Positions 1-10,458 of a stretch of 10,458 bases of DNA are shown here, piece after piece. Positions within the stretch are counted from its first letter, which is position 1, and each line of letters opens with the position of its first letter. The stretch lies in the IMG/VR virus record IMGVR_UViG_2700989286_000012. One strand, written 5' to 3'. Under the pieces are notes generated by a model. It was not told where the DNA came from, ran no database searches, and worked only from the letters and a program-made list of their open reading frames with translations. Position numbers and translations under genes: made by a program. The DNA comes from a virus (Duplodnaviria > Heunggongvirae > Uroviricota > Caudoviricetes).

Positions 1-516
1 CTAAAAAATATAACCCGTTATTATCCTGAAAATATGCCATATGGTAATAATGTTCAGTATTTCCAGAGTGAAGATGGTAAGGATTTCTACGAATCCCTGC
101 CATTATTCACCAAAAAATATAAACTTTGCATAACACCTGACAGCGGCGTTATCTGCTCAATATCACAGGACGCCTCGGCGCTGTATCCTGCGGGGTTTTC
201 TGTGGTTGAGGTCGATGAACTCCCTGAAGGCACGGATATTTCAGGAAACTGGAAGTTTGATAATGGCATAATCTCCCGTATTCCGGTTAACTACGCAAGA
301 AAACTGGAAGCAATGCGCCAGTCATATCTTAATCAGGCATATGAAAAAATTAATGACTGGAGAACGGAGCTACAACTGGGCACCATCAGCGATGAAGACA
401 GAGCAGCACTTACCCAATGGATGGCATACATCAGTCAGGTGAAGAAAATGGAACTACCCGCCATTAAAACAGAAGCTGAATTTAACGCCATTAAATGGCC
501 TGAGCAGCCACAGTAA
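1..516 (+). CDS. Tail fiber assembly protein (Tfa / Mu U-like chaperone), probably 5'-partial at the window edge
   Basis: The C-terminal half (...ISDEDRAALTQWMAYISQVKKMELPAIKTEAEFNAIKWPEQPQ) has the conserved Tfa C-terminal pattern ending WPEQP. The first in-window ATG is at 34, but the frame stays open from 34 back to position 1 with no in-frame stop, and no Shine-Dalgarno precedes ATG-34, so the true start is probably upstream of the window. Stop codon TAA at 514..516. Confidence 0.75.
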   Translation, partial: LKNITRYYPENMPYGNNVQYFQSEDGKDFYESLPLFTKKYKLCITPDSGVICSISQDASALYPAGFSVVEVDELPEGTDISGNWKFDNGIISRIPVNYARKLEAMRQSYLNQAYEKINDWRTELQLGTISDEDRAALTQWMAYISQVKKMELPAIKTEAEFNAIKWPEQPQ

Positions 517-519
517 TAA

Positions 520-539
520 AGAAGGCCGGAAGGCCTTCT
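520..539. terminator. Candidate bidirectional intrinsic terminator hairpin between the convergent Tfa and tail fiber genes
   Basis: Perfect 8-bp stem AGAAGGCC (520..527) / GGCCTTCT (532..539) with a GGAA loop, 4 nt after the Tfa stop and 9 nt after the tail fiber stop. On the - strand it is followed by TTATTA, which is only moderately T-rich; there is no clean T-run on the + strand. Confidence 0.5.
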
Positions 540-547
540 GAATATCA

Positions 548-1429
548 TTATATACTTGCAGCCGTCACCCATGCTCCATTTAACAGATACTGCAACGGCC
601 GGTAATACACGCCGCCGACGTTATCTGCCGTATTCTTACCGACATCCTGTACTTTAATTCCGGTAAGAACATTGCCGCCCCCCAGATTCAGATCCCAGCT
701 TTCCCATGTTCCGGGCATATGTGCGGTCACCGACCCCAGTCTTATGGCGGTTACTGTTCCTGATGAGATAGTGATATCCTGCGTCCCGTCAAAGGGAACA
801 CCATTAATTGTGTGGGCATTTGCCAGCCTGTTCGCGGCAACGGCGGTGCCGTCCGATGGCAGGGCATTCGCCGCCCTGTTTACCGTTTCCCGTAAACCGA
901 CGTTATCGATAAAAGCCCCTTTATCCGGAATGTCTGCGCCGTTCTGCTCCCTGCGCAGGTAACGGTTATCACCTTCGCTTTTGCTGTAAACATCCAGATT
1001 ATTACGGGCGGTTCCCTTATTCTCCAGGTCGGCGAGATTCTGATCCTTCGCCAGGGCATTAACGTCACCGGGACCAAGACTGTTTTTTGTGGCAAGCGTC
1101 CCCAGACCAAGATAACCACGGGCCAGACGCTGGGCCTCCGCACCGGCATCAGCAATTTCTTTCAGGTTATTTTTCCGGGAAAAGGCATTCGCAGCGATAA
1201 TGGCTTTAATGGACAGCGTAAGCTGGTTTAACTGCGCCTTATCCGGCTGAATACTGGCTTCAGCCAGAATATTCAGCAGTTCGGCCTGGAGAATATTCAG
1301 CCAGTCCTGACCAATCCAGCTGATACCTTTTTGTCCGTCACCTTCGGTAAACCAGGTTGTGGTATTACTCTGCGCCGGTGCCAGCGCAGGCATATTCGCC
1401 ACGCCGGAATTATTATCAACATGAAACAT
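548..1429 (-). CDS. Phage tail fiber protein (Mu S-like), with a constant N-terminal part and a short variable C-terminal part
   Basis: 293-aa ORF. The ATG overlaps the upstream stop as TAATG (translational coupling). The N-terminus ([14 protein letters not shown]...[10 protein letters not shown]) looks like the conserved tail-fiber N-terminal attachment region. An invertase crossover-like site falls at codons 173..181 (FIDNVGLRE), leaving about 117 aa distal to it. Confidence 0.8.
887..912. other. Putative DNA-invertase crossover site (gix/hix-like) inside the tail fiber gene
   Basis: TTCCCGTAAACC-GA-CGTTATCGATAA: two imperfect 12-bp half-sites around a 2-bp core. It matches hixL (TTCTTGAAAACCAAGGTTTTTGATAA, recalled from memory) at 18 of 26 positions and gix even more closely as I recall it. 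Its position corresponds to the constant/variable junction of Mu-type fiber genes. Confidence 0.55.
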
Positions 1430-1989
1430 TAAATAGTCTCCTCTTCATGGCTGTTTGCATAAACGTAAATAAACGTCTGCCATGCAGGCTTATAACGGTT
1501 CAGAATACATTCCAGCGCACCGCCTTCATAAATACGCAGCGGCGTGAGAATATCATCCAGCACATTCATATTCCGGTAGCCGGTTTCACTGTTAATCGTG
1601 ACAATACTGACCCACTGCGAATCCGGTGAGGGCTGAATGTCAATCTGATAACCAAACTCCGCCGCAAACCGGATATAAAATTCACGGTTCAGCGAGGGCT
1701 TCATCCGGTATTTATTTCCGGCATAACGCTGTCGCTCCGTGAGGGTGGCTCCGGCCATATCACACTCGGGAAGCCCGAGATAACGCTCCCAGTCTTCCAG
1801 CAGCAGGCGCGACGTGTCAGGGAAACGCTCGGCAAGCAGCTGTTTACCCGTCCAGGATACACGCGCTGTCGAATGACTGAGGCCCAGACATAATGATGCC
1901 AGTACGGATGACGGACGCTTGTCCCATGCCAGCCCGTCAGGCAGTAACTGCAACAGGGCGCGCTGATGCGGGGTCAGGGTTACAGCCAT
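1429..1989 (-). CDS. Baseplate protein, DUF2313 family (Mu gp48-like)
   Basis: 186-aa ORF placed between the J-like baseplate gene and the tail fiber, as in Mu. The start ATG at 1989 overlaps the upstream gene's end by 10 nt; its stop overlaps the fiber start. Confidence 0.75.
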
Positions 1990-3062
1990 GTGATTTCTCC
2001 TACCGTCAGCAGCTCACTGTCTCCCGCCTGAACTGACGTCAGCGGACTGCGCACTTCAAAATCCTCCAGATTTTTCACCCCTGCCACCGCCCGCCAGAAA
2101 GACGACGGCAGAACCAGACCGCCGGGCCGGGATTCGTTATACAACAGGTCGGTCAGCGCCTGTTTTACGGCCGCCTGATTCTCCGGTGTTTTCGGGATGA
2201 TCCTGATGCTGAAGGGCACCGGCTTATTGGTCAGTTTAAACACGGTCACCGTCGGCCCCAGAGGCTGTCCGACAGGCTGGCCGGTCGCCGGATCATCATG
2301 ACTGCGGATATAATCCGCCACCCGCTGAACATCACCGTCACCGGGGAAAATATCCGGGTTATTATCCTGAACAAACGTTACCCCCACGCTGCCCGCCTGC
2401 GGCCATTCCGGGCGGCACCATGCCCGCGTCACGCCCGGCACTTCACGCGCCCAGCGTTCAAAATCATACTGCGTGCCGCCGGACGGTGGATTCTGCACCC
2501 GGAAAACCAGACGGGAAAGCAGCTCCGGCACGGTTTCCACATCCGCACCACCGGTGATCCCCGTTCCGGTCACCGTGGCCGTCTGGTTGATCCCCGCCTG
2601 CGGTGTGATAAATGTCAGTTTTGTCCCTGCCGGGGCATTCCCCGCACGACCGGCACTTTCGGCTTCCACACTGACATTCAGCGTACCGGCCTTACCGGTC
2701 AGGGAGGTGGTGATACGGTAAACCACGCCATCACTTCGCTGGAGAAGCACACCTTCCTTGATCCCCGCATCCGTGGTCAGCATCAGCTGAACCGGCCCGT
2801 CCCCCCGAGAGGCAGGCTTACGCATGACGCCCCAGAATGCACAGTGTTTCAGCAGTTCGGCTTCATCGGCTTCGGTCGGGATGATCTGACGCGCAATCCA
2901 GGCCAGATGCTCATGCTCCTGAGCAGATAACCCTGCCTGAGCGTAAGCAATGGCATTCAGGGTGGTTTCATTCACACCCGGCTGCGAGCCGGGCAGGCGC
3001 TGGCTGATATCCTGCTGTGTCTGCGTGATTAACTGTGCCAGCGGTAAAGGCTGATAAGGCAT
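1980..3062 (-). CDS. Baseplate J-like protein (Mu gp47-like)
   Basis: 360-aa ORF of the size and position expected for the J-family baseplate wedge. Its start at 3062 overlaps the upstream stop as TAATG. Confidence 0.8.
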   Translation of the reverse strand: MPYQPLPLAQLITQTQQDISQRLPGSQPGVNETTLNAIAYAQAGLSAQEHEHLAWIARQIIPTEADEAELLKHCAFWGVMRKPASRGDGPVQLMLTTDAGIKEGVLLQRSDGVVYRITTSLTGKAGTLNVSVEAESAGRAGNAPAGTKLTFITPQAGINQTATVTGTGITGGADVETVPELLSRLVFRVQNPPSGGTQYDFERWAREVPGVTRAWCRPEWPQAGSVGVTFVQDNNPDIFPGDGDVQRVADYIRSHDDPATGQPVGQPLGPTVTVFKLTNKPVPFSIRIIPKTPENQAAVKQALTDLLYNESRPGGLVLPSSFWRAVAGVKNLEDFEVRSPLTSVQAGDSELLTVGEITWL

Positions 3063-3499
3063 TACTCCCCCTTAAGATCAGCATAAAAAATCATGGGCCT
3101 CACTGAACCATCAGGCAGGGTTATGCGCACCGAAAGCGCCAGCCGCGCGTGTCCCACACGTTCTGCATGACAGACCACGGATGACGCCACGCCATCCTGA
3201 CTGAGCCAGCCCAGCGCCTCATCCGCGTAAGCACGGGCACGGCTTATCACCGAGGCCAGCGTTTTTTCCCGGCTGAGAAGCCACAGACGGGAGCCAATGG
3301 GGCGCGGGCGAAAACTGTCTCCCCACCATCCCCGGCGGTCGCGCGTACCGTCAGGGATTTCATCCGATGCCAGCGCCCGGCGGTCAGTAAACAGCGAAAT
3401 CAGAACGGCCGTCAGCAGACTGTCATCCGTCAGCAGGTCGGCACCGTTCAGTTGCAGCGAACCGCATCCCTGATCCCACACAATTGCAATATCAGCCAT
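3062..3499 (-). CDS. Baseplate protein, GP46 family (Mu gp46-like)
   Basis: I place the start at the ATG at 3499 (MADIAIVWDQG...), preceded by an AGGAG Shine-Dalgarno about 9 nt upstream and overlapping the gp45 stop in the ATGGCTGA arrangement. The longer ORF-track version (to 3643) would overlap gp45 in another frame and is rejected. Confidence 0.75.
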   Translation of the reverse strand: MADIAIVWDQGCGSLQLNGADLLTDDSLLTAVLISLFTDRRALASDEIPDGTRDRRGWWGDSFRPRPIGSRLWLLSREKTLASVISRARAYADEALGWLSQDGVASSVVCHAERVGHARLALSVRITLPDGSVRPMIFYADLKGE

Positions 3500-4103
3500 T
3501 CTCCGGCACTCCTGTCTTACTGCCTTCGCCGTTATCATGATGCACATGGCCGGAATACCGTATCCCTGCAATAACGGCATCCGACATTGTGAACAGTCCC
3601 TGAGATTTCCCCGTACCCTCAAGCGCGAAATTACCCTTAACATGCAGGTTCTTATCCACCGTCACATTGCCCGTAAAGGTGGCTTCCGGCGTATCCACCC
3701 GCATCCCCTCGTCGGCGTAAATCTCCAGCATTTTGCATGTCACAATAATGCGGCCATCCTTTGTTAACCGTATCCGGTGCCCCTCATGGTGATACACCCC
3801 CGTATCTCCGGCTGTGAGTCCGGTCGGGCGGCTGCGCCGGTCTTCCACCACAAGCACCACAGTCTGATCCCGCTGTCCGCCCAGACAGGCAAAAAAGGTT
3901 TCCGCACCCGGCAGGGGAACGCTGATCTGCCCGTACTGCTGGGGACGCTCCACATCATCAAAGGTTTCGCCGTCCATGCCGGTGAGCTGCACATTCTGCA
4001 TTTTCAGTTCGTCATGTGTGCCGGTCAGAACGCCCCGGCCAAACAACAGGCGAATACCGCGCGTTACCGGGGCAATCAGGCGGCTGAACACTTCATCATT
4101 CAT
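3492..4103 (-). CDS. Baseplate central spike protein (gpV / Mu gp45-like)
   Basis: The ORF track starts at a TTG at 4106; the adjacent ATG at 4103 (MNDEVF...) is the more likely start. It overlaps the P-like gene's stop by 8 nt. The C-terminus carries a His cluster (SGHVHHDNGEG) of the kind seen at metal-binding spike apices. Confidence 0.8.
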   Translation of the reverse strand: MNDEVFSRLIAPVTRGIRLLFGRGVLTGTHDELKMQNVQLTGMDGETFDDVERPQQYGQISVPLPGAETFFACLGGQRDQTVVLVVEDRRSRPTGLTAGDTGVYHHEGHRIRLTKDGRIIVTCKMLEIYADEGMRVDTPEATFTGNVTVDKNLHVKGNFALEGTGKSQGLFTMSDAVIAGIRYSGHVHHDNGEGSKTGVPENG

Positions 4104-5220
4104 CAAAGCTGATCCCCTGTTTTTTCATCTGCTGGCGAATAAAGGCATCAACATCGTCACCGGAACCACCCCGGCCCTTACTGTCCGGCTCTGCCGGAAC
4201 GATAAAGCCGTCACGCGGTGCCAGTACCAGCCGGGTGACTTCCCCGTTATGCTCATCAAGTAAAAACTCCACCTGACAGACCAGCAGTTCAGTCTGTTCT
4301 ATACCGAAACGCAGGGCTGAAACACCGGTCAGCAGATTGACATCCCATAACCGGCCATCATCCCGGAACCAGCCACGCACGGTGGCAGAAAACCGTTCTG
4401 AACGGGCAATCGCACGGCGCATTTCACGCAGGGCACGCTGCCGTGCACCGGTGATGTCTGTCTGTTGATCGGCGAGGATGATTTTCGGCCGGTAGCGGCC
4501 GATCTGCTCATCACTGATGACGCCCACAGGTGCTGCCAGACGGGCGGCGGATTCGCTGTCTCCCCGTTTGCCACCACCGCGCCCGTGTCCCCGGACACGG
4601 TATTCGCTGTATCGTCCTCGCCAGTCCGTGTTGTAATCGGCATCAAGCAGGTTATCTCCCAGCACCAGTCTGTCCGTCTGCTGGCTTCCTGCCTGGGTGA
4701 ACACCAGATCGCCGTCAGCATTACTGGTCACCAGCACCCCGCGATGCCGGGCAGCACGGGTCAGCGCATCCGCCACGGTTTCTGAGTTTTCCAGCGTAAA
4801 AGAGCTGAAGGGGCGTGCAGCCGTGTCGTCGTTAACCTGCCAGCGCACGGCTATCCCGAAGGGCGCACATAAATCTGCGGCAATCTGTGCCAGCGTCCGG
4901 TTGCGCCACTGGCTGCCGGGATGGATGGCGGCACAGTCCACCAGGTCGCCGGTTTTATCCCGACCGCTGATGCTGATCTGATGACGGGTTGCACTGATCC
5001 GCTGACTGACCTGATCCAGCCAGCCACTGATGACCGTCTGCCCGTTAATTCTGAGCGTCAGGGGCTGACCGGTCCGCAGGGCTGAGGGGATGCGCTCACC
5101 GGGCAGCATCAGCCCCAGTTCAAACGACCCGGCCAGATGCTCCAGCGAGCGACGGACGCTGACCGTCAGCCAGCCGGAAAAAATACTGCCGCCGATATAC
5201 AGTTCAATCCTGCTGCTCAC
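4096..5220 (-). CDS. Mu P-like tail/baseplate protein (late control D family)
   Basis: 374-aa ORF. The start is a GTG at 5220, preceded by a strong GGAGG Shine-Dalgarno 6-7 nt upstream, and overlaps the 3' end of the N-like gene by 17 nt. Position and size fit Mu P. Confidence 0.75.
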   Translation of the reverse strand: MSSRIELYIGGSIFSGWLTVSVRRSLEHLAGSFELGLMLPGERIPSALRTGQPLTLRINGQTVISGWLDQVSQRISATRHQISISGRDKTGDLVDCAAIHPGSQWRNRTLAQIAADLCAPFGIAVRWQVNDDTAARPFSSFTLENSETVADALTRAARHRGVLVTSNADGDLVFTQAGSQQTDRLVLGDNLLDADYNTDWRGRYSEYRVRGHGRGGGKRGDSESAARLAAPVGVISDEQIGRYRPKIILADQQTDITGARQRALREMRRAIARSERFSATVRGWFRDDGRLWDVNLLTGVSALRFGIEQTELLVCQVEFLLDEHNGEVTRLVLAPRDGFIVPAEPDSKGRGGSGDDVDAFIRQQMKKQGISFDE

Positions 5221-6562
5221 TGATCACCTCCACGCGGCGGCCACCCGGAACAAAAACCGGATCGGGGATATTGTTTCTGCGGACAAAATACTGCCAGCGG
5301 CGGCTGTTACCGGTGGCACGGTACAGCGTGACCAGTGCCGGTTCGGTGGTTCGCACCATGACCTGAAAAGCACCGGGAAGATGCACGCTCCGCGTGGTTA
5401 AATCTTCTGTCAGCGCAAGCCCTGCATCACGTAATGTAAGGGCGGTGCCGGTATGGCCCTGTGCGGACAGATCCAGCACCTGTTGTTCCATGACATCGCT
5501 CAAATCCCGGTTGATACGCTGCACATCAGCAGAACTTTCCAGCCAGGCCAGTCCGCCCGCACGGTCAGTATCCTGAACGTGCGTCGTATTCTGCCGGATG
5601 ACCTGATCCAGCAGTTTTCCGACCGTCTGCGCCTGCGACACCAGGGCTGCACTCTGCATGACGCTCCGCAGCAGACGGATATTGTTCTGTGCCGCAGGCG
5701 TCAGACCAATCAGGCGCTGTGGATCATCCTGTTCGCTGAGGGTGTAACGCAGGGAGGAAAGTGTGCGGTACAGCTGCGGCATGGCCTGCTCTGCTATGCT
5801 GTCACGGTTTGTGGTCAGGCTGCCGGACGGCGTTCCGGCTTTTCCGGTCAGAGACAGGGAAGGATCGCCGGGCAGCCCGGTCAGCACGGCAAACATTCCG
5901 GCCAGCGATTCAGCCATGCGACGGGGCGCATTAATCAGGGCGGCGGCATTGCCTTTCAGGGCAGTAAAACTGGCCGTAAAGGCACTGATATCCTGCACAA
6001 TCCCCATCCCCGAAACGGCATTCTCCAGTGCATCAATCTTATCGCTGATGGTGTCGGTCATGGCCTGTACATCATGCAGACCGTCTGAAATCACCGTCCA
6101 GCCGTCTGAAAGCGTGTTAAACAGCTGATTCATTGCTGAGCCGCTTTTCTGCTCCAGCGCAGCTGCCGTATCTTCTGCCACCGCAGGGGCGGTATCGTCA
6201 CTGGCGGGGATCACGTTGATCGTGAACTCAACCGTTCCCTGCTCGCTGGCGTTATAACGGCTTTCAAAGCTGTTTATCAGCACGTTTAACGTGCCGTAAT
6301 CCGGGTGCATCAGTTCACCGGCACCGGGTGCACGCAGCGCATCACGCAGGCGGCTTCGCTGTGTCTGAAGATCGTCTCCGGTCACCAGAACCGTGAATGT
6401 GAACTCCGGGAGTTTTGGCCCCAGATCATCCGCACCGCCGCTTTCACGCAGTGGGTATTCACGGCGCACAATGTTACGTCCGCCCCGTTCCCGCTGCTCC
6501 TGATAAACCAGGAACGGTACGCCACGAAAGGAGCCACGCCCCGGCGTGTCAGTAGAGGCCAT
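5204..6562 (-). CDS. Mu N-like DNA circulation protein
   Basis: 452-aa ORF immediately downstream of the tape-measure gene, as Mu N is. The start ATG at 6562 has a GGAGG Shine-Dalgarno 5 nt upstream and overlaps the tape-measure 3' end by 14 nt. Confidence 0.8.
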   Translation of the reverse strand: MASTDTPGRGSFRGVPFLVYQEQRERGGRNIVRREYPLRESGGADDLGPKLPEFTFTVLVTGDDLQTQRSRLRDALRAPGAGELMHPDYGTLNVLINSFESRYNASEQGTVEFTINVIPASDDTAPAVAEDTAAALEQKSGSAMNQLFNTLSDGWTVISDGLHDVQAMTDTISDKIDALENAVSGMGIVQDISAFTASFTALKGNAAALINAPRRMAESLAGMFAVLTGLPGDPSLSLTGKAGTPSGSLTTNRDSIAEQAMPQLYRTLSSLRYTLSEQDDPQRLIGLTPAAQNNIRLLRSVMQSAALVSQAQTVGKLLDQVIRQNTTHVQDTDRAGGLAWLESSADVQRINRDLSDVMEQQVLDLSAQGHTGTALTLRDAGLALTEDLTTRSVHLPGAFQVMVRTTEPALVTLYRATGNSRRWQYFVRRNNIPDPVFVPGGRRVEVISEQQD

Positions 6563-8327
6563 AGTTCCCTCCGTTCCAGACGTTCACATCCAGGCCATGC
6601 TGTGCGGTATCATCCACATCAATACTGCGCGCCCGCCAGCCTTCAGGGGCCACAAGCTCCACCCGTGCGGCGGTTTTCGCGGTGGCCTGTCCGCCGTTTT
6701 CGTCACTGCCGCCACGCAGTTTCTGCCAGGCCTGCGTCAGCCAGCCCCCCAGATAATCACCGAGATAGCTGCCCACCGTGGAACCAATGGCAACCCCGAC
6801 CGGACCAGCAGCCGCCCCCAGCGCGCCACCGGCGATACTTCCGGCAAGGGAACCCACGGCACCGGCTTTATCGGCTGCACTGGCGCTGCTGTCCAGCAGT
6901 ACAGGAGCCGCCATGGCACCGGCCCACAGGGCACCACCACCCAGCCGACCGGCACCACGGAACAGCCCGGCAAAACGCCCCAGCCCCATGCGGTTTCCGG
7001 CCGCCGTTAGCAGACCACCGGCACGGCTCATCATACGACCGAAGAAGCCCTGTTTACCGGCACTCTCCGCCAGTTGCTCACCGGCAGTCACGACGGTCGT
7101 GACACCCCGTCCACGTCCGGGGCCGCGTTTTTTACGGCCGCGCACGGTTTTGCCGTCACCGCTGACCACCACATCCCCGCCACCTGAGGCCAGGCCACCC
7201 GCAGGCCAGTTGGTGACCAGCACGGGCTGAACGGCAGCCGGATTTACCCCGGTAAGGAAATTCAGGAACCGGCCAGCGCGTCCGGGCTGCGTTCCCGGTA
7301 CAGTGGTCTGCGGTTTGCGGAAGGGCGACGTCAGCACGGAGGTCATCGCCATGCCATAGCGTAAGGGGGTTGCGCCGAGACGTAATGCTCCCGTCCCCGC
7401 AAACCTGAGCACCTTCAGCGCACGGGAGGCGAGATACATATACATCAGGTACTTTGCGGCGGTCTGCGCACCCTGACCAATGCGATCCAGCGCATCGCCA
7501 TAACCGGCGTCGCGCAGTGCCTGAAGCGTTTCCCTGACTTTCTGAATGACCCGGTAAAAGCCGGTCGCAGCGTCTCTGGCATACTCAAATCCCTGATTCA
7601 GGGCTGAGGCCGTCTGTGTGGCCAGCTTATCCTGTAAGCCGCTTTTCTGTGCCGCATCAGCATAATCCAGAAAGCCTTTCAGGCTCTTTTTCAGGCTGTC
7701 AAACGGTCCCTTTGCCATCACCTCGCGGGCAAATCCGTCCCAGACATCGCCCATCATGGACGTCATTCCCGTCCAGGAATTCATGGCGTTTTTCTGGGCA
7801 CCTTTTGCCTGTTCGGCCATCACCTGAAATAACAGGCGAATGCTGTCCGGTCCCAGTTTTCCTTTCTCGCCTTTCTCACGGATGATCTTCTGGTTTACAC
7901 CCAGCTTATCGGCCAGCAACTGGTAAACGTTAATCCCGTATCCGGTCAGAATATTGGCGTCCGCTGCCTGGATACTCTGGCGGGCAAACATCTGTTTGAG
8001 TTGCAGGGACGCACCCTGTGCATCTGACAGTGACCAGCCGTGATAGCCGCCCTGATCCTGAAGCATGGTAATAAAGCGACGGGCTTCCCTGTCACTCATA
8101 CCGAACCCGCGACTGGAGGCGTATTCCTGCATAACCCCCGCCAGCCCCCAGGTGGTGTCTTTGGCGTTCTGTACCGCCCAGGCTTTCACTGCTTCCGTTT
8201 TTGCCGTATCGCCATGATTAATGGCGTTGAGACGCAGAATATAGTTCTCCATCTCTGCGGCCGGGCGGATAAAGGCTTTATTAAACCCGTAGACCGCAGC
8301 CCCTCCCGCCAGCATCCCGTAAAGGTT
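6549..8327 (-). pseudogene. Tail tape-measure protein, 5'-truncated remnant
   Basis: Long ORF with a Gly/Ala-rich C-terminal region (GGALGAAAGPVGVAIGSTVGSYLGDYLGG) and an RGRKKRGPGRGRG stretch typical of tape-measure proteins. The frame is open up to 8387, but sequence above about 8330 is transposase coding DNA read in another frame. Neither the GTG at 8387 nor the ATG at 8315 has a recognisable Shine-Dalgarno. How much of the N-terminus is missing is unknown. Confidence 0.65.
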
Positions 8328-9456
8328 GCTTATCCGAGTAATACAGAAACGGTTTGCCGTGATGGCGAATGCCGTGCTGTATGGCACCGGCTACGGCGAA
8401 AACATTTTCAGCCAGGTCAAGGCTCCAGCCCACCACAAAGCGCGTGCCACCGTCGATAACAAAGGTCACTTCCGGTGCAAATGGCCGACCGTGAACCGGG
8501 TGTGCGCATTTCAGCTTCATGCCGTGACCGTCACCAATCCAGACATAATTCACCGGCATTTTTGACCAGTCGCGGCGCGTGAATCCCTCAAGCTGGCGGT
8601 ATTCACTGCCGGTCACCCGGCCTTTTTGTTTCACCACTTCCGGCAGTTTCTTCATTGCGCGGCGAATGGTGTCATAAGACGGCATGATATCGAGCATATA
8701 AGGCTCATCAGCGTGCCGGTGCTGCCATTCAGCGACAAAATCCTCGTAAGCCTCGGTCATTGGTCGGCCGTTTGACTGGCGATACTGCGCCAGAAATTCG
8801 GGCAGCCAGTTAATATCTTCGGCTTTTATTTCCTGGCGCTTACCCGGTGCCAGTAAAAGCAGGCGTTCAGCGGCGTTCTGCGCCTTGTTAAAGGCCGCAA
8901 TCCAGCGTTTCAGCGTGATTTCACTTAACGCGCGGCTGTTTCCCTTTTTGGCGTTCGCCGTCTCAACCATTGCCACAATGCGCTCGTCCAGCTGCGAACG
9001 TGCCAGGTTGTCAACGATAAACCGGATAGCCTTCGCACAGCTGAAACCAGGTTGTTGCGCGACTTTCAGAACTTCGCTGACGATCGCGATTCGTGCATCA
9101 GCCACCTGGCGCTGGTTTTCAGTCAGGGCATTAAGGCGTTCGACCATCAGTTGTGGTGATCCGCGATATGCCTCCACCGCATCAACCACGGCAGGCGAGC
9201 GTCTGGCCTTTGTCACCACTGGAGCCGGTGATTCATCGACTTTTTGAGTCATCAGTTGCAGGGCGTAGCGTTCACGTAATGCCTGCTGCGTCACTTCAGG
9301 TAAACAGTCGATGCTGTATTCAGTTGCTTTAGAGCCTGAGCGACGACGGGAACAACAGCTTTTCCCTTGTACGTAACGTTGTAATGCCTGGCGAATACCT
9401 TTTGTTGTAGCAGGCATTCCGGGCGCGCCAATCAGTTCTTTTGCAATGACATACAT
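8281..9456 (-). pseudogene. Mu A-type DDE transposase, N-terminal 391 codons only
   Basis: The N-terminus (MYVIAKELIGAPGMPATTKGI...SGSKATEYSIDCLPEVTQQAL) parallels the MuA enhancer-binding domain as I recall it. WIGDGHG aligns with the MuA first catalytic Asp region (INGDGY) and FLYYSD with the second Asp region. The frame then runs 14 unrelated codons to a stop at 8281, so the catalytic Glu and the C-terminal domain are missing. The start ATG at 9456 sits 1 nt after the ner stop. Confidence 0.8.
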
Positions 9457-9457
9457 A

Positions 9458-9706
9458 TCATGACGCCTTTCTCATATAGCTCTTAACCTGGTATCGACTG
9501 GGCCAGATTTCTTCAGGCGATACCCCAAGAGCATCAGCAATTATTTGCTGATACGGTCGGCAAGGAGTACGTAATACGCTTTTCAGCGAATCCCTGCTGT
9601 AACCAGCCTTTAAAGATAAAGAGCGCAGTGATAAGCCAGCCATGTGTAAGCGCGCCTTGATGATTTCAGGCGGCCAATCGTGATCTGAAACTTCTCTTCT
9701 ACTCAT
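9458..9706 (-). CDS. ner: Ner-like DNA-binding protein (Ner/Nlp family)
   Basis: 82-aa ORF with the DW...GLSLRSLS...QQIIADALGVSPEEIWPSRYQ pattern, which closely resembles Mu Ner and E. coli Nlp as recalled. It lies immediately upstream of the transposase gene and divergent from the repressor. A GAGGA Shine-Dalgarno precedes the ATG at 9706. Confidence 0.85.
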   Translation of the reverse strand: MSRREVSDHDWPPEIIKARLHMAGLSLRSLSLKAGYSRDSLKSVLRTPCRPYQQIIADALGVSPEEIWPSRYQVKSYMRKAS

Positions 9707-9726
9707 ACTTCCTCTATTCTAAAAAG

Positions 9727-9765
9727 TTACCCGCGCGGATATTCGTGCGGATATCTGTACGGGTA
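9727..9765. promoter_or_regulatory. Candidate operator cluster in the ner/repressor intergenic region
   Basis: Inverted repeat TTACCCG (9727..9733) / CGGGTAA (9759..9765) enclosing two direct copies of GCGGATAT (9736..9743 and 9748..9755) at a 12-bp period. It lies just downstream of the candidate early promoter -10 element. Confidence 0.4.
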
Positions 9766-9766
9766 A

Positions 9767-9796
9767 ATAATAGAACAAACAAAAGAACCAAATCAA
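9767..9796 (-). promoter_or_regulatory. Candidate early promoter (Pe-like) driving ner and the transposase
   Basis: On the - strand, -35 TTGATT (9791..9796), an 18-nt spacer and -10 TATTAT (9767..9772), with a predicted start near 9760. Identified by eye only. Confidence 0.3.
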
Positions 9797-9873
9797 GGTA
9801 TTTTGTTCTTTTTATTCTTTGCGGTGTTTTTGTTATTAATATCAATAAGATAAATAAAAAGGAACCTGAGAGC

Positions 9874-10458
9874 ATGAACATGAAAAACAGTTCTTTTCTC
9901 GACGAAGGAAAAGAACCAGTGATCGAACGGATTTTTCGTCTTGCAGAGCGTTACAAATCGAGAAGTGAGGCGGCTAGAGCATGGGGAATAAACGTTCAGA
10001 CATTGCAGAACTACTACAAAAGGAGAAACAATCAGCCGCCACCACAACCAAGAAAGCACCATCTCCAGAACATTGCAGAAAGAGAACATGTATCTATGGA
10101 GTGGCTGGTCAATGGTTATTGTGATGAGCCAAGCATGAAAAAAGAACCAATTGAACAAACAAAAAGAACAAAAAAACAAAGAATTGATGATAGTGATTCC
10201 ATCATCATGAGGGCGTGGGACTCGCTAACTTCATCTGAACAAGAGATTTTGTCCAACTTATTGATCAGAAAAGGGGCCGAACTACTAACCGTTTTGCTTG
10301 ATACAGATATTCAAAAACTGCACTCATTGAGCGGAGTCAAAAGAGCACTAGCATTGAGTCTACAAGAGTTACCCGATGATACTGTAAGAGAGATTTATGA
10401 AGAATGTGAAGCTAAGGTTAATCATTTAAATGTAACCCAGAAAAAGGCTGGTGCGTAA
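9874..10458 (+). CDS. Putative prophage repressor, positional equivalent of Mu c (HTH DNA-binding protein)
   Basis: Transcribed divergently from ner across an AT-rich control region, as Mu c is. Likely start is ATG 9874 (MNMKNSS...) with AAGGA about 10 nt upstream; ATG 9880 is an alternative. The N-terminal segment SRSEAARAWGINVQTLQNYYKRR looks like a helix-turn-helix. The upstream in-frame extension to 9745 runs through the operator region and is rejected. The family is uncertain; it does not obviously resemble Mu c. Confidence 0.65.
   Translation: MNMKNSSFLDEGKEPVIERIFRLAERYKSRSEAARAWGINVQTLQNYYKRRNNQPPPQPRKHHLQNIAEREHVSMEWLVNGYCDEPSMKKEPIEQTKRTKKQRIDDSDSIIMRAWDSLTSSEQEILSNLLIRKGAELLTVLLDTDIQKLHSLSGVKRALALSLQELPDDTVREIYEECEAKVNHLNVTQKKAGA

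Follow-up and report, generated by a model that had tools for sequence, protein, structure and literature searches.

The window analysed here is a stretch of Caudoviricetes DNA of 10,458 nucleotides (IMG/VR record IMGVR_UViG_2700989286_000012), and its features are collected in Table 1. In its last part a repressor, ner and the transposase gene A follow one another in Mu order as a left-end module, A being reduced to its N-terminal half. B belongs to the deleted interval described below and is therefore missing; the module (repressor, ner, A, B) is ancestral and now incomplete. The tail genes follow the Mu-type contractile-tail and baseplate order (gp42-gp49), with matches in turn to TMP_3, DNA_circ_N, GpP-like families, Phage_Mu_Gp45, GP46, Baseplate_J and Phage_Mu_Gp48; the sheath and tube genes are deleted. 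An inverted-repeat arm at 822-907 and a gix-like site at 887-912 are signs of an invertible segment.

Table 1. Features of the window, in order of position. AF39 denotes the intact Mu-like prophage of E. coli AF39 (L008).
Feature	Position	Strand	Remarks
Tail-fibre assembly gene, first 6 nt cut by window/contig end	1..516	+	AF39 CDS L008 7981-8502, annotated tail fiber assembly protein; window position 1 = L008 7987
Tail fibre gene, 293 aa, 3' part within invertible segment	548..1429	-	1 aa difference from AF39
gp48-like baseplate wedge, intact	1429..1989	-	Protein identical to AF39; Pfam Phage_Mu_Gp48
Baseplate J / gp47-like, intact	1980..3062	-	Protein identical to AF39; Pfam Baseplate_J
Baseplate wedge, gp46-like, intact	3062..3499	-	Protein identical to AF39; Pfam GP46
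Baseplate spike (Mu gp45-like), intact	3492..4106	-	Protein identical to AF39; Pfam Phage_Mu_Gp45
Baseplate hub protein (Mu P/gp44-like), 374 aa, intact	4096..5220	-	1 aa difference from AF39; GpP-like Pfam families
DNA circularization protein (Mu N/gp43-like), 452 aa, intact	5204..6562	-	Length equal in AF39, 6 aa differences; Pfam DNA_circ_N
5'-truncated tape-measure gene, residues ~91-685 of 685	6549..8336	-	Native start lost; gene callers take ATG at 8315
Deletion junction, sole remaining TTATCCG copy (7-bp microhomology)	8330..8336	.	Homology to each parent stops exactly at the heptamer
Truncated Mu-type transposase A', 391 aa	8281..9456	-	Native residues 1-375 = 9456-8332; 16 out-of-frame codons = 8331-8284; stop = 8283-8281
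ner-like early regulator, intact	9458..9706	-	Pfam HTH_35, E=2.5e-19; 43% identical to Mu Ner, E=3e-14
AT-rich divergent control region, repressor/ner	9707..9873	.	Sigma-70-like site 9796-9767 (-), positioned like Mu early promoter
Putative immunity repressor, 194 aa, intact, divergent from ner and A'	9874..10458	+	Full-length PHROG 3037 'transcriptional repressor', E=1.5e-58; region 99.9% identical to AF39

The original prediction held that a single deletion had joined a truncated Mu-type transposase directly to an internal fragment of a tape-measure gene. The ORF at 8281..9456 (minus strand) encodes 391 aa; its translation runs ...HGKPFLYYSD and continues with KQPLRDAGGRGCGLRV to a stop. The end of recognizable transposase had been placed at about 8332, and this is exact to the base, as the last native codon, D375, occupies 8334-8332; the unrelated codons before the stop number 16 rather than the 14 first counted. 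Residues 1-375 are identical to the same residues of the 696-aa transposase of our intact relative, the Mu-like prophage of E. coli AF39 (NZ_OZ547136.1; L008). The product, A', retains 375 of the 696 native residues and half of the PHROG 310 transposase profile, matching profile positions 8-350 of 696 only.

The intact AF39 transposase matches Pfam HTH_Tnp_Mu_1 and Mu-transpos_C, and it aligns end to end with MuA (the A protein of the Mu genome, AF083977, aligned directly) at only 22% identity. In that alignment, the motifs WIGDG and YYSDNG stand opposite WINGDG and TIDNTRG of MuA. The N-terminal Mu DNA-binding domain HTH_Tnp_Mu_1 (PF02316) is present in A' at residues 6-143 (28.6 bits against a cutoff of 23.3); PF09299, the C-terminal domain of Mu transposase, spans residues 533-593 in the AF39 protein and is missing from the window ORF. 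The D-D-E triad is incomplete, with D309 and D375 kept and E415 beyond the truncation. Of the triad residues, the second aspartate (query position 375) is aligned with the DNG motif of RSV/ASV integrase, and the glutamate (query position 415) with its catalytic ER motif; a phmmer search of PDB sequences matched retroviral integrase cores only and did not reach MuA. Having lost the catalytic glutamate, the rest of the core and the C-terminal domain, A' is predicted from its sequence to be a catalytically dead fragment. We rejected a natural short-transposase design, as all 248 complete genomes with this A region (248/248) continue past the breakpoint and the annotated relatives encode 696 aa.

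The tape-measure frame had been described as open over the same bases in another frame, and the ORF at 6549..8387 (minus strand; 612 aa) is indeed so. Alignment with AF39 covers 594 codons with six amino acid differences and no stops. The Pfam TMP_3 match is retained, and the PHROG 973 match begins at profile position 113. The N terminus is incomplete, the first ~90 of 685 residues having gone and no native start codon being left, in keeping with the internal fragment that had been proposed. The tape measure of the intact relative is 35% identical to Mu gp42. In none of the genomes searched is a transposase of ~390 aa naturally followed by a tape-measure gene, and neither of the two ORFs is full length.

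Four independent searches agree on a homology break at window 8330-8336. A megablast search of window 7900-8800 against complete E. coli genomes gave only half-matches, starting at window 8330, and the matches from the phage collection are split at the same base. Local BLAST against the intact AF39 prophage placed window 1-8336 at L008 7987-16322 and window 8330-10458 at L008 39108-41236. In AF39, TTATCCG is found at both parental sites (L008 16316-16322 and 39108-39114), and both copies are also found in L003. There are no filler bases at the junction, and the flanks match each parent exactly. The presence of the heptamer at both parents, together with the single copy left, points to a microhomology-mediated (illegitimate) deletion, of which a short direct repeat at both breakpoints, one retained copy and the absence of filler are the pattern. 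The computed probability of at least 7 bp of microhomology at a random junction is ~3.8e-4. The intact prophage region has seven TTATCCG copies on this strand, so the repeat is sufficient for the event but not unique.

The AF39 prophage holds both halves, collinear and on one strand, at ~99.4% and 99.9% identity. The two halves lie 22,792 bp apart in this one collinear intact prophage, which gives the deletion size and agrees with the single deletion of 20-25 kb that had been proposed. As an intact progenitor at ybfP was absent from every complete genome searched, this size comes from a relative that is 99% identical and has another insertion site. The missing span runs from A codon 376 to tape-measure codon ~90, and in annotated AF39 it comprises 37 CDSs, with the tail assembly chaperone at one end and the AAA ATPase B at the other. 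The losses are B, kil, gam and other early genes, the Mor-family activator, lysis, terminase, portal, head, sheath, tube and tail chaperone genes. All of the functions originally listed as missing (B, early genes, late activator, lysis, head, sheath and tube) are thus located in the deleted interval of AF39. The repressor, ner, the left end and eight baseplate/fibre-module genes are kept intact, and the kept tail genes differ from those of AF39 by 0-6 amino acids and have no stops. Two apparent indels in the tail region relative to AF39 are 4 nt apart and mutually compensating, and we rejected a frameshift there since they cancel out.

The window covers the left and middle portions of a defective Sp18/AF39-type prophage. 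We consider it very probable (around 0.93) that it was formed by one internal deletion of ~22.8 kb between two 7-bp direct repeats in a Mu-like prophage resident in E. coli ybfP. One repeat would be that at codons 374-376 of the transposase gene A, and the other that situated ~90 codons into the tape-measure gene; the deletion would have removed the interval between the two TTATCCG copies, leaving one copy. Seven base pairs are far under the length required for RecA-mediated recombination. The pathway was most likely RecA-independent illegitimate recombination, which the anatomy fits, and may have proceeded through replication strand slippage or misalignment, or through microhomology-guided end joining after a double-strand break; the sequence fits both.

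An exchange between two Mu-like prophages, or between a superinfecting phage and a resident one, could also have brought together a left end from one and a tail module from the other, although we regard this as improbable. The best relatives of the two halves do differ in most genomes: the transposase side has 100% identity with O157/E2855-type prophages and only 93% with the JE86-ST05 prophage, and the tape-measure stretch 7400-8335 is 100% identical to JE86-ST05. However, mosaicism among Mu-like prophages accounts for these differing best matches, and AF39 alone carries both halves, in the right order and orientation and at the identities given above, so a second element is unneeded. Had two elements recombined at a 7-bp homology, the chromosomal stretch between them would also have been deleted or inverted.

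Still less probable is an assembly artefact, in which a chimeric contig would falsely link the transposase gene and the tape-measure gene of a prophage that is in fact intact. Contig numbers run above 1000 in the source assemblies, which are fragmented drafts, and in one of them two redundant contigs carry the region. The chimeric ORF of 391 aa, with an identical junction, was nevertheless assembled on four contigs from three separate draft assemblies, GCA_000945895.1, GCA_000938575.1 and GCA_000939695.1, one contig having two SNPs elsewhere, which makes misassembly unlikely. A 7-bp overlap is far below any assembler k-mer, so that a false join is not expected, and on an 18.6-kb contig the two ends are 8.3 kb and 10.3 kb away from the junction. 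The junction was found in 0 of 5,426 complete E. coli genomes, and in none of the 248 carrying this transposase region; scans of species-representative genomes and metagenome contigs for it gave no match, and a scan of viral contigs returned only the IMG/VR copy of one NCBI contig.

Site-specific deletion by the element's own Gin-type invertase at pseudo-gix sites is the least credible of these alternatives. The Mu gix site begins TTATCCAAAACC, the motif TTATCC is common to the junction and the Mu gix half-site, and the tape-measure breakpoint is preceded by TCCCGTAAA, a 9-nt match to the gix-like site of this phage. The breakpoints nevertheless match gix at best at 12/26 positions, which is background level, compared with 21-22/26 for real sites, and the half-site spacing of the transposase-side pseudo-gix is wrong. 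Serine invertases cut at the central dinucleotide, and in a register-by-register comparison the crossover heptamer would fall outside it; wild-type Gin, moreover, strongly prefers inversion between inverted sites. We rejected a Gin/gix-mediated deletion on the 12/26 match and the wrong crossover register. Adjacent deletion mediated by Mu transposase was rejected on anatomy, as neither endpoint is at a Mu end and the left end is intact.

That left end, TGTAACCAGG..., starts with 5'-TG and over 261 nt shows 100% identity with the end of the AF39 prophage. On the source contig ~2.4 kb separate it from the junction, and the chromosomal flank there matches K-12 at 100% identity as far as a point inside ybfP. 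Insertion sites are non-att and differ among relatives, being ybfP here, dcyD in AF39 and citF in JE86-ST05. The source contig stops inside the invertible fibre segment, short of the element's right end and of the 5-bp target duplication; further rearrangements may lie beyond window position 1. The putative repressor has no detectable similarity to Mu c, so its role is assigned from its position and the PHROG 3037 label. In the control region, TTGATT-18-TATTAT is a promoter-like match to consensus only. Terminator and promoter scans gave counts not above shuffled-sequence controls, so read-through from the early promoter is something that we infer.

The single internal deletion would have placed the eight baseplate/fibre-module genes directly downstream of the early operon, without their late activator. 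Judging from the genes kept and lost, the element is predicted to be no longer able to transpose, replicate, lyse the cell or form particles; repressor expression and immunity to homoimmune phages should persist. One clean event with no further pseudogenes suggests that the deletion is recent.

The closest known systems are the Sp18-type Mu-like prophages (O157 Sakai Sp18, E2855, JE86-ST05 and AF39), of which Sp18 is described as an intact Mu-like prophage (PMC2669165). They share the gene order of repressor, ner and A, then tape measure, circularization protein, gp44-48, fibre and invertible segment, and have 99-100% nucleotide identity to the retained parts, whereas the window lacks 22.8 kb. 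Bacteriophage Mu (AF083977) has the left-end layout, the tail gene synteny and a TG-starting end in common with the window, and its gix matches the gix-like site here at 22/26 positions; the invertible segment of the window is smaller and has a different content. Laboratory mini-Mu and Mud elements (reviewed in PMC3145075) are likewise internally deleted Mu types that keep the left end and repressor region and have lost lytic and morphogenetic functions. By comparison, ours is natural, has a dead A fragment and no B, and keeps baseplate and fibre genes. The cryptic ('grounded') E. coli prophages Rac, DLP12, e14 and Qin (PMC6379469) have also lost mobility and lysis genes by deletion while keeping regulatory and some structural genes. 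Unlike them, the prophage in the window is transposable (Mu-type) rather than lambdoid and shows a single clean event and no other pseudogenes.

This decayed Mu-like prophage is ordinary, and its history is one of routine prophage decay. We give only a slight chance to the idea that the remnant may be a natural mini-Mu-like immunity island, more than debris. If it were, the repressor would exclude homoimmune Mu-like phages, and A', with its end- and enhancer-binding domains, could block incoming related transposases in a dominant-negative manner. Brought under early-promoter control by the deletion, the baseplate and fibre genes could be expressed on derepression or donated by recombination to other Mu-like phages. 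The 16-kb element could also be mobilised by a helper Mu-like phage, provided that its right end is intact.

Beyond correct annotation, the importance of the finding is small. In annotation, the two ORFs of 391 aa ('transposase') and 588-612 aa ('tape measure') are better flagged as pseudogene fragments of one scar than as genes, and the junction sequence is a handy lineage marker for the few carrier isolates. The locus offers a clean natural 22.8-kb deletion between 7-bp repeats, a case, resolved to the base pair, of the one-step disabling of a transposable prophage.

Direct reading of the sequence around the proposed junction, together with the six-frame ORF list, gives a 391-aa transposase frame ending ...HGKPFLYYSD-KQPLRDAGGRGCGLRV-stop and, across the same bases, a 612-aa frame that is open in a different reading frame. 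These ORFs are as the original prediction described them, apart from its count of 14 unrelated codons before the transposase stop: 16 follow D375. Megablast of window 7900-8800 matched 248 of 5,426 complete E. coli genomes, none with at least 80% query coverage, and the matches listed all begin at query base 431 (window 8330), in genes annotated as 'Mu transposase C-terminal domain-containing protein'. For window 7400-8335, identity to annotated 'tape measure protein' genes reaches 100%. The phage collection breaks at the same base: similarity to the Mu-like inserts of two Stx phages runs up to window 8330, and similarity to Yersinia Mu-like phages runs from 8330 onward. Aligned by local BLAST with the intact E2855 and JE86-ST05 prophages, the window yielded two blocks overlapping by seven bases; in the three-way alignment this overlap is TTATCCG, present in both parental sequences, and beyond it each parent is wholly divergent on the far side.

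We searched the two halves of the window separately, and the best match to either half was E. coli AF39 (NZ_OZ547136.1), whose annotated prophage sits in dcyD and carries both blocks in the same strand and order. The interval missing from the window is 22,792 bp long, with 37 CDSs and a single tRNA-like feature annotated in it. By the AF39 annotation it includes the tail assembly chaperone, tube and sheath, head-tail connector proteins, the major head protein and protease, virion and head morphogenesis proteins, a DUF935 protein and a Gp27-family protein (the portal and small terminase subunit, going by the gene order of Mu), the lysis genes, the Mor-family activator and gp16, an early-gene run including Gam and Kil, and the AAA ATPase B. 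The original prediction, a single deletion of roughly 20-25 kb joining a truncated Mu-type transposase to an internal tape-measure fragment, is confirmed as an observation and supported as an interpretation, and all the gene content that it listed as missing lies in this interval. The tRNA-like feature, an 80-nt 'tRNA-OTHER' also found in other intact relatives, is encoded on the opposite strand and is flanked by the virion-morphogenesis and head-morphogenesis genes.

Coordinates of features in the window and in related loci (L008, AF39 prophage; L001 and L003, other intact related prophages; L004, draft contig of GCA_000945895.1)
Feature	Window	Other locus	Remark
AF39 block, left	1-8336	L008 7987-16322	99.45% identity
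AF39 block, right	8330-10458	L008 39108-41236	99.9% identity
E2855/JE86-ST05 blocks	774-8336; 8330-10041		
TTATCCG	8330-8336	L008 16316 and 39108	one copy left
Truncated transposase A'	8281..9456 (-)		391 aa
Tape-measure frame	6549..8387 (-)		612 aa; called from ATG at 8315
194-aa putative repressor	9874-10458		PHROG 3037
Early-promoter-like site	9796-9767		
Terminator-like hairpin	539-520		
Inverted-repeat arm	822-907	L008 7561-7646 / 8808-8893 (pair)	86 nt, 94% complementary
gix-like 26-mer	887-912		22/26 to Mu gix
'tRNA-OTHER'		L001 4122-4201; L003 22298-22377; L008 23517-23596	
Interrupted lipoprotein gene		L004 7572-7925	outside window

Both genes at the junction are incomplete. The window transposase is identical to the 696-aa AF39 protein up to residue 375 and out of frame thereafter; both carry the Pfam domain HTH_Tnp_Mu_1, Mu-transpos_C (residues 533-593) is found only in the intact protein, and the window copy covers only positions 8-350 of PHROG 310 (transposase, profile length 696). 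The intact transposase aligns over its full length with MuA (22% identity, E=5e-11), with WIGDGH opposite WINGDGY and YYSDNGSG opposite TIDNTRG. In a PDB sequence search, its residues 363-426 align with the RSV/ASV integrase core, D375 pairing with the aspartate of DNG and E415 with the glutamate of ER; we take the aligned integrase and MuA residues to be the DDE triad. On these alignments A' retains two of the three catalytic residues and lacks the glutamate with everything downstream, and so is predicted to be incapable of acting as a transposase. The tape measure keeps residues ~91-685 of 685, with six substitutions and no stops relative to AF39; it retains the TMP_3 domain, lacks its native start and matches PHROG 973 from profile position 113.

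Downstream lie eight genes, encoding a circularization protein, gp44- to gp48-like baseplate proteins, a fibre and a fibre assembly protein. All have the AF39 lengths, differ from AF39 at 0-6 amino acids and are free of stops; the window edge truncates the fibre assembly gene. Decay thus stops at the single deletion, which suggests that the deletion is recent. The 86-nt inverted repeat bounds a ~1.2-kb invertible tail-fibre segment; an alternate fibre C-terminus and a Gin-type recombinase lie just outside the window in the intact relative. Contig CCCJ01000160.1 ends at window position 1, inside this segment and 6 nt into the tail-fibre assembly gene. The contig end would be explained by a sequenced culture of mixed segment orientation, which, if true, would imply an active invertase.

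The deletion has a 7-bp direct repeat at both breakpoints, of which one copy is left, with no inserted bases, and both endpoints are intragenic and lie at a distance from the Mu ends. At a random junction, a repeat this long has a computed chance of ~4e-4, so microhomology took part in the joining. The route was probably RecA-independent illegitimate recombination, through either misalignment during replication or end joining guided by microhomology once the DNA had broken. The deletion most likely arose within an already resident prophage rather than before integration, because a genome without functional A and B could not integrate unaided. The intact prophage has seven copies of TTATCCG on that strand, so nothing in particular accounts for the use of these two. 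Gin/gix-mediated deletion, suggested by the resemblance of the heptamer to the beginning of a Mu gix half-site, was rejected, as the breakpoints match Mu gix at only 12/26 positions, the genuine gix-like sites of the phage reaching 21-22/26, and as the crossover is in the wrong register.

An exact-protein look-up placed the chimeric ORF in three NCBI draft assemblies, on four contigs altogether. Positions 8174-18631 of CCCJ01000160.1 (GCA_000945895.1), reverse-complemented, match the window at 100% identity, and the remaining junction contigs are also 100% identical, save one with two SNPs (window 5881 and 5892). GCA_000945895.1 carries the junction on two contigs (L004 and L007, 100% identical over 2,964 nt), a sign that this draft of >1,000 contigs is redundant or mixed. 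The 7.9-kb chromosomal part of CCCJ01000160.1 contains chiP, fur, fldA, seqA and pgm. L004 5000-7912 (seqA, pgm and a lipoprotein gene, presumably ybfP) equals K-12 at 100% until the match ends inside the lipoprotein gene, which lies downstream of pgm and is interrupted by the prophage; from the next base, 261 nt starting TGTAACC... are 100% identical to the AF39 prophage left end. The element is thus a Mu-type insertion whose site is lineage-specific and whose left end is intact. The complete E. coli genome collection contained no Mu-like prophage at this site, the junction was absent from the species-representative genomes and metagenome contigs searched, and in IMG/VR it was found only as a copy of one NCBI contig; this makes the scar a rare one, limited to a few related isolates.

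Among the Mu-like prophages known from E. coli, the remnant is of the Sp18 type; Sp18 itself is described as intact and Mu-like (PMC2669165). Prophage 'grounding' and decay through deletion are well documented (PMC6379469), and the kind of event is ordinary; the literature searched contained no account of this particular scar. As an internally deleted Mu-type element it resembles laboratory mini-Mu derivatives, and it is unlikely to be a mobilisable mini-Mu or a functional immunity and anti-transposition island.

In the immunity region, Ner has an HTH_35 match and 43% identity to Mu Ner, and the 194-aa gene divergent from it matches PHROG 3037 'transcriptional repressor' over its full length. 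Because this protein has no detectable similarity to Mu c, we infer its immunity role from position and family label. The region is mosaic: homology to JE86-ST05 and E2855 ends at window 10041, and AF39 matches to the end (10458).

As a result of the deletion, ner, A', the tape-measure fragment and the baseplate and fibre genes all lie downstream of the early-promoter-like site and make up, together with it, a single unbroken same-strand (-) array, in which a consensus-only scan, with counts not above shuffled controls, found the hairpin to be the sole convincing terminator-like site and none upstream of it. Mu late promoters need a Mor-type activator (Mu genome annotation); with the Mor-family gene deleted, the baseplate genes would be silent. 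Judged from gene content, transposition and replicative transposition should be impossible (A dead, B absent), host killing and lysis would be gone with kil and the lysis genes, and particles could not form without head, sheath and tube genes. With the putative repressor and Ner kept, the remnant would be expected to confer homoimmune superinfection immunity.
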